The notes below the pieces were generated by a model. The model was not told where the DNA came from and did not search any database. It saw only the letters and a list, made by a program, of their open reading frames with translations. Below, piece after piece: positions 7,180-52,826 of a stretch of 64,000 nucleotides of DNA. A program made the position numbers and the translations under genes. Within the stretch, counting starts at the first letter, position 1. Each line of letters starts with the position of its first letter. Source of the stretch: a virus (lineage: Duplodnaviria > Caudoviricetes); IMG/VR virus record IMGVR_UViG_3300028591_000094, positions 64,001 to 128,000 of that record. The stretch is one strand, 5' to 3'.

Positions 7180-8010
7180 TTATTCGTGGTCTCTGATTTC
7201 AATCCAGTCGGGGCGCATTCCATCTGTTATAACCGCCCCTAACATTGTGAATTTTACATCATCCCGCACATCGGTGCAGTGCTTATGGTAATGCCCGTAA
7301 GTCCACGACTCCAACGGCTGGTTTTGGACAACTTTGAGTTCATCCCATATCAAATCCATAACATGGCGTTCGTAGTCAATATCGGCAAAAAGCGTTTCGT
7401 CATTCTTACCCCAAGCTTCAATACCGTCTTTCGACTGAGGTTCACAAAAGCTTGGACTGGTATGAGTGCAAACGTGTTTGATAACAATCCCTTGTTTATT
7501 AATCTCATTGAAAGCATCTTGATTGAAAACTGGCGCTTCGTCTGCCCAATATATGTTGTTGGTGTGTGTTGCAGCATCCTCTTCGGTTGCACCTTTATGC
7601 CATTTAAGATAAGCATCCATCATTCGCTGTTTTTCGGACATACGCCACTTGCGGTCGATTGACGTTGCGCCGCCCACCATTAATATGGTGTCATTAAGTA
7701 TAGTGTAGTCTGGAACTGGGAGGATGTATTTGGTTGTAACAATCTTATTATTGAAGAACGCTGGGTCGTCGTGATTACCTCGGAACATAATGATGTACGT
7801 CTGACGGTCTCGACACAACCGATTGAGTTTTTCGAGAGCAACTTTGGTTGCCTCTTTACTGTAGAACCCTAATCCGCAATCTCCGCATACAATAATGCCA
7901 CTATGGTTGATATTATACGTCTTAATCATACTGACAAGCGATGAGAAACAGCCGTGTATATCACCCACGGCATATATTGCTTCAACAGGAATATTGACTT
8001 TATTAATCAT
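7180..8010 (-). CDS. Metallophosphoesterase
   Basis: GDIHG, CGDCG, RGNHD, THT, YGHYH. Confidence 0.9.
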   Translation of the reverse strand: MINKVNIPVEAIYAVGDIHGCFSSLVSMIKTYNINHSGIIVCGDCGLGFYSKEATKVALEKLNRLCRDRQTYIIMFRGNHDDPAFFNNKIVTTKYILPVPDYTILNDTILMVGGATSIDRKWRMSEKQRMMDAYLKWHKGATEEDAATHTNNIYWADEAPVFNQDAFNEINKQGIVIKHVCTHTSPSFCEPQSKDGIEAWGKNDETLFADIDYERHVMDLIWDELKVVQNQPLESWTYGHYHKHCTDVRDDVKFTMLGAVITDGMRPDWIEIRDHE

Positions 8011-8015
8011 GTTAT

Positions 8016-8027
8016 TATTAATATACG
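8016..8027 (-). promoter_or_regulatory. CGTATATTAATA putative early/middle promoter
   Basis: Motif ends 5 nt before the ATG at 8010. Confidence 0.65.
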
Positions 8028-8050
8028 AAAAATTTGTATCATATTAAACA

Positions 8051-49752: not shown

Positions 49753-52700
49753 GTTGTAACACTTTCATCTTTATATTCATAAATAGACTGTTCTGTATTT
49801 ACCTCACTCTTCGGGTCTGGTAAAAAGTCATTATAATACAACCCGTATTTTCCAAACATATCCTGCCTGTTCAAAAAGAAATTTATTGATTCGTCGATAT
49901 AAAAGCAACCGTTAGCAAAGGTATATGTCGGCAATGTTTCATCTGTGTTATCAACATCCCATGCATTGACAACATCTCTCCAAATGTAAGTTGCGGTTCC
50001 AGTTTTTGTTGCATATGACGGTATCTCCAAATTCTCGCGGCGCACAACATATTGACCGTTGTTTATACCATCGCATATCATTATCCAGTCTCTATATCTG
50101 GCTGAGGGTTCATTGCGGCTAATCTTGTTGATGACGAAATTGTAGGCGTCCAGTACGGTCACCACATCCAGCCACCACTCGTCACCACTTGCTCTGTCGC
50201 GCAACAGTATGCGACCACCAGTCACATTGTGTTTTAATCTGGTCTGAATTTTGATGAAGATGCCATTGGCTTGTATCGGTTCGGCTTTATATACATCAAC
50301 CACCTTGTGGGTTGCCTGGTGCACACTGCCATATCCTTTCAGTCTCAGGCGATAGTGCGGTTTATAGTAATAGCCCTCAATTCGATGAGTTACCGTTGAG
50401 GGGGCTTCTCTTGTATCTACATGAAAGTTTCCCAAGAGGTCGTCAGAAGTTATTTCATCATACTTTACAATATACTCACTGTTGGGTTCCATCTCACGTT
50501 GCATTGTATTGAAACGGAAGTTAACGTCACACAGTGGAGTTACCTCACATCTCCAGGGGCAAACCTCAACTACATCACCATAGAACCATTCATCGTTGAT
50601 TGTAATGTCGGTTTTATCTCCAAGGGTTTGGTGAATGCCGCTTGCATCGTTATGTATCAAGTTAACATCGCCAAGTTCCCACATTTTATCTAGTAAGTTT
50701 CTGGAGTCGTCAGGCAAATGAAACAATTTGAAGCCACAGGTTACAGGCCCGAAGCAGTGTGAGAACTCCACGTTTTCACTGTCATACCTCTGTTGAGTGT
50801 ACCATTCATCATGCCCCCTGTTGGTCTTGACTATTGTGACGTATATGTCGGTGAGCTTATTACCCATGCCGTCGGTTAATCCCTCAACATTTATATTATC
50901 GGTAAACACCGCCTGAGCTATACCGTCGCCATATATTGTCTGTGAAAACGCCAACGGATACTGTTCATTCTCGAAATTGAAATCAACTTTTTCGCGCTGC
51001 TGGTTGGTTCCGTATTTCATGTTCGGAACTTTCTTGAACTTTCTCACATAGTATGAGCACTCGGACGCTCCGTTACTCCTGGTAAAACGGAAACTAATGT
51101 AGTCCCTCCATAACCCGCCACCCTGCGACGGGGTTATATCAGCGTCGTCGTCGCCCGTCTTGAACGCACTGTTTATTATCTGACGTATAAACTGGTTGGC
51201 GTCGACGGTGGCTGTATGATAAGGTGTTTGTAAATCATGATTATACAACTCATAGAAAACACCATCCTTTGCTATATAGCGCTCGTTCTGGGATGGAATG
51301 TTTGTTAACCCGTATGTATCACTATAATATTGAACATAACTGTTGTTGTCACCGTCGGGAAATACGTCGAAACAATCCGCAAAAGTATCGGTTGGCATGT
51401 AGTCGTAGGTGCATATGTGTATTGCGTCGTTGTTTCTAACCAGATTACCCTGGATATATTCCTGGTTAGAATTAAAGTATTCAATATCATCCAGAACAAG
51501 CGGTTCATAGAAATAATCCTTTACATAATCCCAGGCTGTGTAGTTGTCACCGTCATGCTCTTTCGGCGTTGCAAAAATAGTATCCAGTATGGAAGTGTCC
51601 GACAGATAGAAATAATAGTCCTGATATTCAGCGTTCAGGTTGCCGATGCCAACAACCCTGCATTCTTCCTTCGTTTCATTTTCCATTGGGTGCCAGTGAC
51701 CATTTTCCTCATCCTCGTTATAGTATAGGTGTATGTAGTCATCGACTTTTAGATTGTGTTTTGTGGCTGTCCTGAAAAGAAGGTAGTTCTCACCCTGTGG
51801 TCCCATGACATATTCAGCACTAACAATCAACAAAGCGTTGGTGCTACCATCCTGAACCAGTTTGAAATCCTTTGTTTCTTCACCTACCATTGTCTGTACG
51901 GTATATGTTGTGCAGTGTTCATATGGATATGTTATCTGGAAATCCCAGTTACTCTCCAGACGGTTCCTGTATTTGTTGTATTTCGGAATAAAAGAGAACA
52001 GTGTGCGGTCTGGATACATGTCAACAAACCCACAGTTGCTTTTATTGTTCAATGCCCGACTGATATTCATGTCATGGCCTTCAGCATTTTTGGATGGTAT
52101 TGTGTTAGTATTATAGAATCCAAACCATCCGTTCTCTTCCCTGAGGTTTTCGGTAGTCGCATCATTATTCTCAAATGAAAACACGTCTTCCATATTATAA
52201 AGATGTTTTGACTGCAGTAGTGTGTCTCTTTCACTGTTGCGCGTACATTTTTCCACCTCTTCACCACTCTGGGTGCGCATATAGTCCTCGATGGTGTTGA
52301 AAGTGTCTTCGTTGGTATTATTCGGCAGTCTATTCACTATCCTGTACGTCTTGTTGCGAAGAATATGATTGTTGAAAAAATCCATGCCAGGATGATATTC
52401 GTAGCCAAATTTATCCTTGGAGTACTCTGTGTTGCGAATCATATAGTACGGAGTAAGACCATTCCTCTTGCCAGAAGCACTGGAAATATCTGGGTCTTGC
52501 GCACTCGATGATGGGTTTTGTTCAGTAACAACCCTAACGTCCGACGACCCTTCGTGTTTTATAATCTCAGTACATGGGTTGAATAACACATTCGTACAAT
52601 ACGGATTGACAGTAAGGATTAATCGATAGTCTTTGCATTCCTCACGTTCAAACAAGAAACGCTCATTCAAGTCCAATGTACCAACAGTTGAACTATCAAT

Positions 52701-52805
52701 CAACGGACTTATATTACGTGTAATATTGACATTCAAATATTTGTCATCCTGAACAGCGTTGATTGATTTTCTATTTCCTGCTAATATTTTGATTGAATCA
52801 TCCAT
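49746..52805 (-). CDS. Large structural protein
   Basis: 1019 aa; KHNLKVDD repeat; TATTTAT (52811-52817) 5 nt before the ATG. Confidence 0.6.
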   Translation of the reverse strand: MDDSIKILAGNRKSINAVQDDKYLNVNITRNISPLIDSSTVGTLDLNERFLFEREECKDYRLILTVNPYCTNVLFNPCTEIIKHEGSSDVRVVTEQNPSSSAQDPDISSASGKRNGLTPYYMIRNTEYSKDKFGYEYHPGMDFFNNHILRNKTYRIVNRLPNNTNEDTFNTIEDYMRTQSGEEVEKCTRNSERDTLLQSKHLYNMEDVFSFENNDATTENLREENGWFGFYNTNTIPSKNAEGHDMNISRALNNKSNCGFVDMYPDRTLFSFIPKYNKYRNRLESNWDFQITYPYEHCTTYTVQTMVGEETKDFKLVQDGSTNALLIVSAEYVMGPQGENYLLFRTATKHNLKVDDYIHLYYNEDEENGHWHPMENETKEECRVVGIGNLNAEYQDYYFYLSDTSILDTIFATPKEHDGDNYTAWDYVKDYFYEPLVLDDIEYFNSNQEYIQGNLVRNNDAIHICTYDYMPTDTFADCFDVFPDGDNNSYVQYYSDTYGLTNIPSQNERYIAKDGVFYELYNHDLQTPYHTATVDANQFIRQIINSAFKTGDDDADITPSQGGGLWRDYISFRFTRSNGASECSYYVRKFKKVPNMKYGTNQQREKVDFNFENEQYPLAFSQTIYGDGIAQAVFTDNINVEGLTDGMGNKLTDIYVTIVKTNRGHDEWYTQQRYDSENVEFSHCFGPVTCGFKLFHLPDDSRNLLDKMWELGDVNLIHNDASGIHQTLGDKTDITINDEWFYGDVVEVCPWRCEVTPLCDVNFRFNTMQREMEPNSEYIVKYDEITSDDLLGNFHVDTREAPSTVTHRIEGYYYKPHYRLRLKGYGSVHQATHKVVDVYKAEPIQANGIFIKIQTRLKHNVTGGRILLRDRASGDEWWLDVVTVLDAYNFVINKISRNEPSARYRDWIMICDGINNGQYVVRRENLEIPSYATKTGTATYIWRDVVNAWDVDNTDETLPTYTFANGCFYIDESINFFLNRQDMFGKYGLYYNDFLPDPKSEVNTEQSIYEYKDESVTTC

Positions 52806-52826
52806 CCTTAATAAATATTGAATTAT

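Follow-up and report, generated by a model that had tools for sequence, protein, structure and literature searches.

In a giant phage of Bacteroidota-type bacteria, one class of promoter-like motif (class A) stands so close to six genes that their mRNAs should begin on the start codon itself or 1-3 nt before it. Judged by motif position, from which we infer the transcription starts, these mRNAs would be leaderless or near-leaderless, and class A would be a phage promoter of early/middle type for DNA-metabolism genes. We consider this explanation, taken as a whole, to be the best available and a reasonably probable one. The window, by which we mean the whole 64,000-nt stretch of DNA analysed here, also encodes a translation initiation factor IF-3. 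A coupling between this factor and the leaderless layout is not supported by the sequence comparison presented below; a biochemical coupling is possible. The phage record to which the window belongs comprises 168 kb and is 45% complete, from which a full genome of ~370 kb is estimated.

The class A motif and predicted leader lengths

The class A motif, CGTATATTA[A/G]TA preceded by an A/T tract, is present in 13 exact copies in the 168-kb record, six of them within the window. All 13 copies of CGTATATTA[AG]TA point at a downstream gene and none lies inside a gene on the same strand. Allowing up to two mismatches, the window contains 20 matches, compared with 7.5 +/- 2.9 in shuffled sequences, and none of 100 shuffles reached this number. 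Genome-wide, the distance of the 13 copies to the start codon is bimodal: six lie 2, 2, 4, 4, 4 and 5 nt from it, and the genes of the other seven are leadered, with distances of 30-110 nt. Motif statistics and bimodal spacing together support the view, taken in an earlier sequence-only reading of this DNA, that the motif is a promoter. Copies near the start make up 6/13 of class A versus ~3/43 of the other two motif classes (Fisher p = 0.003). One of these three, a class B copy 1 nt before GTG 15697, was rejected as near-leaderless, because the open reading frame of this GNAT gene is probably over-extended; an in-frame ATG 57 nt downstream, from which the protein would begin with MKIIKH, is most likely the true start. 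An exact search of IMG/VR with the 15-mer TTTCGTATATTAATA gave only scattered single matches, which is consistent with chance and uninformative.

The near-start sites comprise five sites in the window, whose distances are exactly those given in the sequence-only reading, and one outside it, all 2-5 nt before the start codon. They serve genes for a primase, an SbcC-like and an SbcD-like protein and a phosphoesterase together with two genes without known function. Four of the six start with ATG and two with GTG, namely the primase gene and a gene outside the window that starts at window coordinate 75425.

On the minus strand, the core CGTATATTAATA (8016..8027) ends 5 nt before ATG 8010 of a metallophosphoesterase gene (7180-8010; annotated phrog_1649, GDIHG at residues 16-20), and a terminator hairpin with a T-run (8057-8079) lies directly upstream of it. 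The core at 35351..35362 (minus strand) is found 4 nt before ATG 35346 of the SbcC-like gene (32926-35346, minus strand), which is followed by the gene for sigma factor 2; this core is abutted by a strong hairpin (35363-35432; -22.5 kcal/mol, z = -4.0). The DNA primase (35792-36787, minus strand), whose N-terminus matches those of relatives in length, is preceded by a core at 36790..36801 (minus strand), 2 nt before GTG 36787, and by a terminator-like hairpin (36816-36853; -19.7 kcal/mol, z = -5.25) with a U-run after it. The two remaining sites are located in short intergenic regions. The core at 21810..21821 (minus strand), 4 nt before ATG 21805 of an 87-aa gene (21542-21805, minus strand; phrog_10680), lies in a 95-nt region common to the divergent plus-strand gene 21901-22842, so that the transcription start for 21805 is confined there. 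Similarly, the core at 37723..37734 (plus strand), 4 nt before ATG 37739 of the SbcD/Mre11-like gene (37739-38566, plus strand; protein starting with MIKKVLHLADLH), lies in a 70-nt region common to the divergent gene 36886-37668. With terminator hairpins (8010, 36787, 35346) or divergent genes (37739, 21805) upstream, transcription starts further upstream are hard to place. The start codons of the SbcD-like, phosphoesterase and primase genes are supported by homology of the predicted proteins. Leadered copies in the window include a class A core at 13173..13184 (minus strand), with a 44-nt leader to ATG 13128, and the class A variant CGTATATTAGTA at 4481..4492 (minus strand), with a 40-nt leader to ATG 4440.

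Two further sites had been listed by the sequence-only reading. Their distances of 5 and 8 nt hold, but they carry a different motif, ATATTTAT (class C). One copy (52811..52818, minus strand) is located 5 nt before ATG 52805 in the 21-nt gap after a 2271-aa gene, the other (32162..32169, minus strand) 8 nt before ATG 32153, where a 34-nt gap follows the sigma factor 2 gene. Class C, a late-type motif, is usually found 14-45 nt upstream of gene starts, and both gaps are short AT-rich stretches inside operons; the two sites are weak and may be chance matches.

In Bacteroidota, the -7 box TAnnTTTG spans -12 to -5 (T-12, A-11, T-8, T-7, T-6, G-5) and transcription starts 4-5 nt later (Baez 2019, PMC6847099). 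The TATATTAA part of class A aligns with this box, and in the six near-start genes the start codon follows 4-7 nt after it. We propose that TATATTAA takes the place of the -7 box, so that +1 would land on or near the start codon: with a start 4-5 nt beyond the box, a distance borrowed from Flavobacterium johnsoniae, leaders of 0-3 nt are predicted. That there is no room for a normal leader, as already suggested from the letters, is borne out by this geometry, since only 0-3 nt fits by motif position. If the transcription start is fixed, leaders of 1-3 nt would result for four of the six genes, and E. coli translates such mRNAs less well than true 5'-AUG mRNAs. GTG is likewise a poor start for leaderless initiation in E. 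coli, where a 5'-terminal AUG is a strong determinant. Class A lacks the canonical sigma-ABfr feature TAHHTTTG, as TATATTAA has A at both -6 and -5, and genome G000 contains only three TAHHTTTG boxes at most 45 nt before a qualifying ATG. Because T-6 and G-5 are nearly invariant in host promoters, a different sigma factor may place the start of class A transcripts elsewhere. We discarded an E. coli-type -35/-10 interpretation of the class A motif, as a generic scan gave no consistent -35 partner.

Class A is probably read by the host RNA polymerase with a phage sigma factor. The large open reading frames yielded no phage RNA polymerase. Two factors of the sigma-70 family are encoded on the minus strand of the window. 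Factor 1 (14325..15215; regions 2 and 4) is preceded by the GNAT gene with its class B promoter (15699-15709), and factor 2 (32188..32892; regions 1.2, 2 and 4) lies downstream of sbcC and thus behind a class A promoter. This arrangement suggests a cascade from class B to class A to class C.

Conservation of the layout in related phages

A megablast search against GenBank phages with 20 kb of the window as query gave no match. In 69 non-redundant primase relatives, the primase promoter has a -7 box 4-5 nt before ATG in 30/69 cases and 6-8 nt before it in 9/69, and over half of the relatives have a primase of the predicted leaderless type. The histogram of box offsets shows a spike at 4 (26 boxes) versus 0-2 at most other offsets. 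These orthologous promoters carry the canonical -33 TTTG and -7 TAnnTTTG/TAHHTTTG elements 4-5 nt before ATG, and in several clades this place is taken by a variant box (TATATTAA, TATATTAT or TATATTAC). In the closest relative, G011, GTATATTAA or GTATATTAG is found 3, 4 and 5 nt before ATGs. In genome-wide histograms of box-to-ATG distances, the boxes cluster sharply at 4-5 nt, are scarce at 9-14 nt and form a hump at 15-45 nt, and one genome has 21 predicted leaderless genes. Across the group, most orthologous primase genes have a -7 box in canonical or variant form at precisely 4-5 nt from the ATG. By this comparison, the predicted leaderless layout is inherited and not invented in the present phage; it is old and widespread among related huge phages.

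The phage IF-3 and competing explanations

The window encodes an IF-3 of 177 aa with N and C domains (15762..16295, minus strand; TIGR00168, PF05198, PF00707). As the sequence-only reading had stated, the factor is full-length: it reaches 131.4 bits for TIGR00168 (infC), where the cut-off is 60, both domains score above cut-off (PF05198 64.3 bits, PF00707 81.8 bits), and the protein can be aligned over its full length with the IF-3 structures of E. coli, Thermus and Geobacillus. In IMG/VR, a single-protein query returned one locus and an alignment-based query 59. The factor has 577 homologues, with 56-95% identity among the 120 matches listed, and shares ~30-40% identity with the IF-3 sequences retrieved from cellular genomes and the PDB. 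Cellular matches in a scan of genome contigs had 33-38% identity and were all non-Bacteroidota (Bacillota, Alphaproteobacteria and other lineages). Across 31 phage homologues (E. coli numbering throughout), R25, Y70, D106, K110, R133 and E134 are invariant, position 66 is K or R and position 131 R or K; Y75 is conserved as well. R25 and R66 contact the tRNA elbow. Substitutions are found at R99, Y107, R116, R129, R147 and R168, including the phage-specific changes R116E and R147E (charge reversals), R168T and Y107M, as seen against an E. coli reference. With tRNA- and 30S-contacting residues kept, nothing suggests a relaxed factor. Judged by these features, the phage IF-3 is real, full-length, ordinary, conserved and under purifying selection. 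Most likely it supplements a host factor that is limiting and, together with bS21, serves phage translation in bulk.

Upstream of IF-3 and in the same orientation (minus strand) lie dnaK (18411-20303), dnaJ (17286-18365), a NUDIX gene (16861-17286) and a macro-like/phosphatase gene (16299-16874), and sigma factor 1 follows just downstream. The order dnaK-dnaJ-NUDIX-macro-like-IF3-sigma is conserved in relatives. A degenerate class A-like site, CGTATGTTAGATA, is found at about 20422-20434, ~115 nt upstream of dnaK; as dnaK heads the gene run that includes IF-3, the factor and the class A genes may be expressed together.

The sequence-only reading had gone further and proposed that the phage IF-3 biases ribosomes toward leaderless or short-leader mRNAs, with a check of infC against motif-to-ATG spacing across related phages. 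This check was carried out and no association was seen. A near-leaderless primase is present in 6/10 near-complete genomes with IF-3 and in 2/4 without it (Fisher p = 1.0; 14 genomes). The two latter genomes, G004 and G051, are 97-100% complete, and the near-leaderless primase is absent from four complete genomes with IF-3 (G007, G008, G009 and G020). Of the canonical -7 boxes genome-wide, 8%, 0% and 21% stand 4-5 nt before ATG in three whole genomes with IF-3 (0% in G006), and 8%, 5% and 26% in three without it (8% in G004, 26% in G051). The phage IF-3 appears, on this comparison, to travel with the chaperones and the sigma factor and not with the leaderless layout.

A takeover system, in which promoter layout and IF-3 act as one to bias host ribosomes to leaderless or short-leader mRNAs, could draw on the presence of the factor and six near-leaderless genes in one genome, on the possible co-expression through CGTATGTTAGATA, on the divergence of the phage IF-3 clade with its charge reversals at R116 and R147, and on the finding that the IF-3 level modulates leaderless translation in E. 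coli. Nevertheless, the lack of co-occurrence described above argues against it, and the residues R25, K/R66, Y70, Y75, D106, K110, R131, R133 and E134 are conserved as in a normal proofreading factor. In E. coli, moreover, leaderless translation is inhibited when infC expression is raised (review PMC9031893), so that the direction of the earlier proposal runs against precedent. We regard the takeover system as very unlikely, and an IF-3 device specific to leaderless mRNAs is probably not what this gene represents. The same precedent would fit the opposite effect, a temporal shut-off in which accumulating phage IF-3 turns down leaderless replication and recombination mRNAs, functionally like the repression of early mRNAs by T4 RegA; the leaderless set is indeed enriched in DNA-metabolism genes needed only transiently. 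However, IF-3 and leaderless genes fail to co-occur under this scheme as well, and the seven leadered genes among the 13 of class A would escape control, which makes the shut-off very unlikely. A broader version, with a long-diverged phage IF-3 adapted to ribosomes indifferent to Shine-Dalgarno pairing, regulating leaderless replication mRNAs up or down and forming a transcription-translation timing module with the adjacent sigma factor, is speculative and in our view unlikely.

A different objection concerns the motif itself: transcription might begin upstream, and the start-adjacent motif could be an RNA translational operator or a processing site. The conserved core does reach the start codon, and positions 11-12 are always TA, although the region between box and start can normally vary. 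Against this stand the seven class A copies 30-110 nt from any start codon, the terminator hairpins with U-runs directly before three copies and the location of two others in short divergent intergenic regions. In addition, relatives have the canonical host elements -33 TTTG and -7 TAnnTTTG in this place at the exact box-to-start distance. An operator or processing site is therefore improbable, and the promoter reading, with class A positioning +1 at or next to the start codon, is the one we prefer.

Comparison with known systems

IF-3 in phages has already been reported (Al-Shayeb et al. 2020, PMC7162821; Iyer et al. 2021, PMC7824862), and the present phage, with a full-length infC and bS21 in a genome of ~370 kb, resembles the huge phages with IF-3, IF-1 and bS21 genes described there; no IF-1 gene was found in the phage record. 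For such translation genes, general support or redirection of translation has been proposed (PMC7162821, PMC7824862). Neither of the two studies reports that such genes are linked to leaderless mRNAs or arranged in the dnaK-dnaJ-NUDIX-macro-like-IF3-sigma order, which is documented here.

Our comparison clears away an attractive story on IF-3 and leaderless mRNAs as unsupported. Bacteroidota ribosomes ignore Shine-Dalgarno pairing. Beyond E. coli, actinobacteria and archaea, leaderless initiation is, to our knowledge, still little understood, and hardly anything about it has been established for Bacteroidota. Uncultured huge phages, with their large natural collection of predicted leaderless genes, may serve as a test set for how Bacteroidota ribosomes find 5'-terminal start codons, and the leaderless layout helps to annotate promoters and true gene starts in phages of gut and rumen.

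Class A resembles the primary-sigma promoters of Bacteroidota (-33 TTTG / -7 TAnnTTTG) in the position of the box relative to the inferred start, in the A/T-rich tract near -18 and in the TA..TT core. It differs from them in having AA for TG at -6/-5, in the missing conserved -33 TTTG and in the conserved CG before and TA after the box. The predicted near-leaderless share of 6/13 in class A contrasts with ~3.7% of B. thetaiotaomicron mRNAs with 5' UTRs <10 nt and with ~13% of F. johnsoniae mRNAs with leaders <=10 nt. Like lambda cI transcribed from PRM and the leaderless mRNAs of mycobacteria, the six transcripts are predicted to have +1 on the start codon and to lack a ribosome-binding leader. 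Unlike in these systems, the layout would extend to an entire class of promoters and to a gene set that is conserved (primase, SbcCD-like nuclease genes), would include two GTG starts, and would operate in a host that already ignores Shine-Dalgarno pairing.

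Spacing and context of the class A promoter motif

The class A motif CGTATATTAATA, one of three promoter-like motif classes in the phage record, is separated from the start codon by 5 nt at 8010 (ATG), by 4 nt at 21805, 35346 and 37739 (all ATG), and by 2 nt at 36787 (GTG of the primase). Re-measurement returned the same motif-to-start distances as the sequence-only reading throughout. With up to two mismatches to CGTATATTAATA, we counted 20 matches compared to 7.5 ± 2.9 in shuffled sequence, and the motif is thus beyond chance. The source record (IMG/VR virus, 168,082 bp, CheckV completeness 45%; the window covers bases 64001-128000) holds 13 exact copies of CGTATATTA[AG]TA. 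None of them is inside a gene on the same strand, and all 13 face a downstream gene and are preceded by an A/T tract. Spacing from motif to start codon is bimodal, either 2, 2, 4, 4, 4 and 5 nt or 30-110 nt. This gives a near-leaderless share of 6/13 for class A versus about 3/43 for classes B and C together (p = 0.003), and the start codons are backed by N-terminal homology.

Sequences preceding the start codons are A/T-rich and Bacteroidota-like, and the genes lack Shine-Dalgarno sequences. Positions 3-10 of the motif, TATATTAA, align with the Bacteroidota -7 box TAnnTTTG, which spans -12 to -5 with 4-5 nt from box to transcription start (PMC6847099). As the box is 4, 4, 6, 6, 6 and 7 nt away from the start codon in the six class A genes, this geometry predicts leaders of only 0-3 nt. 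Transcription starting further upstream is hard to fit to the surroundings of these sites: for the genes starting at 8010, 36787 and 35346, the motif is immediately preceded by a strong hairpin with a U-run (8057-8079, 36816-36853 and 35363-35432, respectively; all on the minus strand), and the copies at 37739 and 21805 are located within regions of 70 and 95 nt shared by divergent genes. A leaderless or near-leaderless state of these six mRNAs is a prediction that is well supported by the comparison with related phages below.

Two further features were observed at class A copies. The three abutting hairpins are terminator-like and form compact terminator-promoter junctions, in which the T-run of the terminator serves also as the upstream A/T tract of the motif. 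At the leadered copy 13173-13184 (minus strand), a 12-codon GTG reading frame (window 13129-13184) begins 6 nt past the motif, and its terminal TAATG overlaps the ATG of the gene at 12718-13128; it may represent a leaderless upstream ORF coupled to this gene.

Classes B and C and the sigma factor genes

Of the 13 copies of class B (GTACAAAAAA-N11-TGCGTTATATA), 12 fall within the first 62 kb, and the leaders are mostly 18-43 nt long. One of the three near-leaderless copies counted for classes B and C, 1 nt before GTG 15697 of the GNAT gene (region 15640-15709, minus strand), was rejected as an ORF-calling artefact, the gene probably starting at an in-frame ATG 57 nt downstream (MKIIKH...). Class C, ATATTTAT(A/T), is found upstream of structural genes, usually at 14-45 nt, and is common to distant relatives. 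The sites at 52805 and 32153, also listed as near-leaderless by the sequence-only reading, are present at the distances first reported, but belong to class C and lie in short intra-operon gaps; they are weak, and their role as near-leaderless promoters is unproven.

ATATTTAT / TATTTATA is the top enriched upstream 8-mer in the phage itself (G000) and in G002 and G004, phages whose primases are no more than about 33-38% identical. It is apparently a late-promoter signal conserved in this group of phages, and its sequence is that of the T4 late box TATAAATA in reverse complement.

Two genes of the sigma-70 family are encoded on the minus strand. The first (14325-15215), a neighbour of IF-3, has a class B promoter ahead, and the second (32188-32892) is part of the sbcC operon, which has a class A promoter. 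Their placement suggests a three-step sigma cascade B -> A -> C, with the TATTTATA-like class C before structural genes. Since positions -6 and -5 of class A do not match the host consensus, this class may be read by a phage sigma factor.

The phage IF-3 gene and leader layout

Most window genes are on the minus strand. The gene set of the window covers baseplate and tail functions, DnaK, a NUDIX protein, nucleases of SbcC- and SbcD-like type and the primase. The full-length IF-3 noted earlier was confirmed as ORF 15762-16295 (minus strand). The ribosomal protein bS21 is also encoded by this phage, at a site outside the window (G000:C1:30028-30183, minus strand; PF01165, 44.8 bits), and no IF-1 gene was found in the record. 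We retrieved 577 IF-3 homologues (56-95% identity among the 120 listed), many on contigs of 320-400 kb, and 59 IF-3 loci within IMG/VR. Identity to the retrieved PDB and cellular IF-3 sequences is about 30-40%. Residues contacting the tRNA elbow or the 30S subunit are mostly retained (R25, K/R66, Y70, Y75, D106, K110, R131, R133), and R99, Y107, R116, R129, R147 and R168 are substituted (E. coli numbering). The gene is real and already known in kind, as IF-3 in huge phages has been published (PMC7162821; PMC7824862).

Its surroundings read dnaK-dnaJ-NUDIX-macro-like (g191)-IF3-[GNAT]-sigma-g161 (13822-20303, minus strand), and a weak site resembling class A precedes dnaK by about 115 nt. Among the 34 closer loci (L196-L229), 27-32 keep the order (dnaK)-dnaJ-(NUDIX)-macro-like-IF3-sigma-g161, and these 34 loci hold nearly all cases of g191 (32/59), dnaJ (30/59) and sigma (27/59) as neighbours across the 59 loci. 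The run looks like a module of chaperone, ADP-ribose-handling, translation and transcription functions.

It had been proposed that the phage IF-3 may bias ribosomes towards leaderless or short-leader phage mRNAs, with co-occurrence of infC and motif spacing in related phages as a check. In the 14 genomes at least 86% complete, primase leader type showed no association with IF-3 (Fisher p = 1.0): with IF-3, the primase is near-leaderless in G002, G006, G010, G012, G035 and G040 and leadered in G007, G008, G009 and G020; without it, near-leaderless in G004 and G051 and leadered in G018 and G029. The genome-wide shares of TAHHTTTG boxes 4-5 nt before ATG overlap as well, with 8% (G002), 0% (G006) and 21% (G040) in genomes with IF-3 versus 8% (G004), 5% (G018) and 26% (G051) in those without. 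Both measures indicate that the leaderless design neither needs nor tracks a phage IF-3. The proposed direction is also opposite to that in E. coli, where higher infC expression inhibits leaderless translation (PMC9031893). A link between the two is not supported by these genome comparisons, and a specialised role of the phage IF-3 in leaderless translation seems unlikely in this small genome sample.

Conservation of the short spacing in related phages

Comparative evidence is the strongest support for the leaderless reading. The box TAnnTTTG is in use among relatives, and of 69 non-redundant IMG/VR primase relatives, 30 have it exactly 4-5 nt upstream of the ATG and 9 have it at 6-8 nt, often accompanied by a visible -33 TTTG. 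The variant boxes TATATTAA, TATATTAT and TATATTAC occupy the same position in several clades, and the closest relative (G011, about 58-67% protein identity) carries GTATATTAA or GTATATTAG 3, 4 and 5 nt before ATGs. In genome-wide histograms of box-to-ATG distance, box counts peak sharply at 4-5 nt, are low at 9-14 nt and form a broad second rise at 15-45 nt. A canonical TAHHTTTG exactly 4-5 nt before ATG precedes 21 genes in G040 (362 kb; loci L398-L416) and 10 genes in G051 (304 kb; loci L365-L380), which is 21% and 26% of the box-bearing genes, respectively. In the host phylum, short leaders are a small minority, with a 5' UTR of <10 nt in about 3.7% of B. thetaiotaomicron mRNAs (PMC7366714), and the leaderless-type shares of both phages are far above this value.
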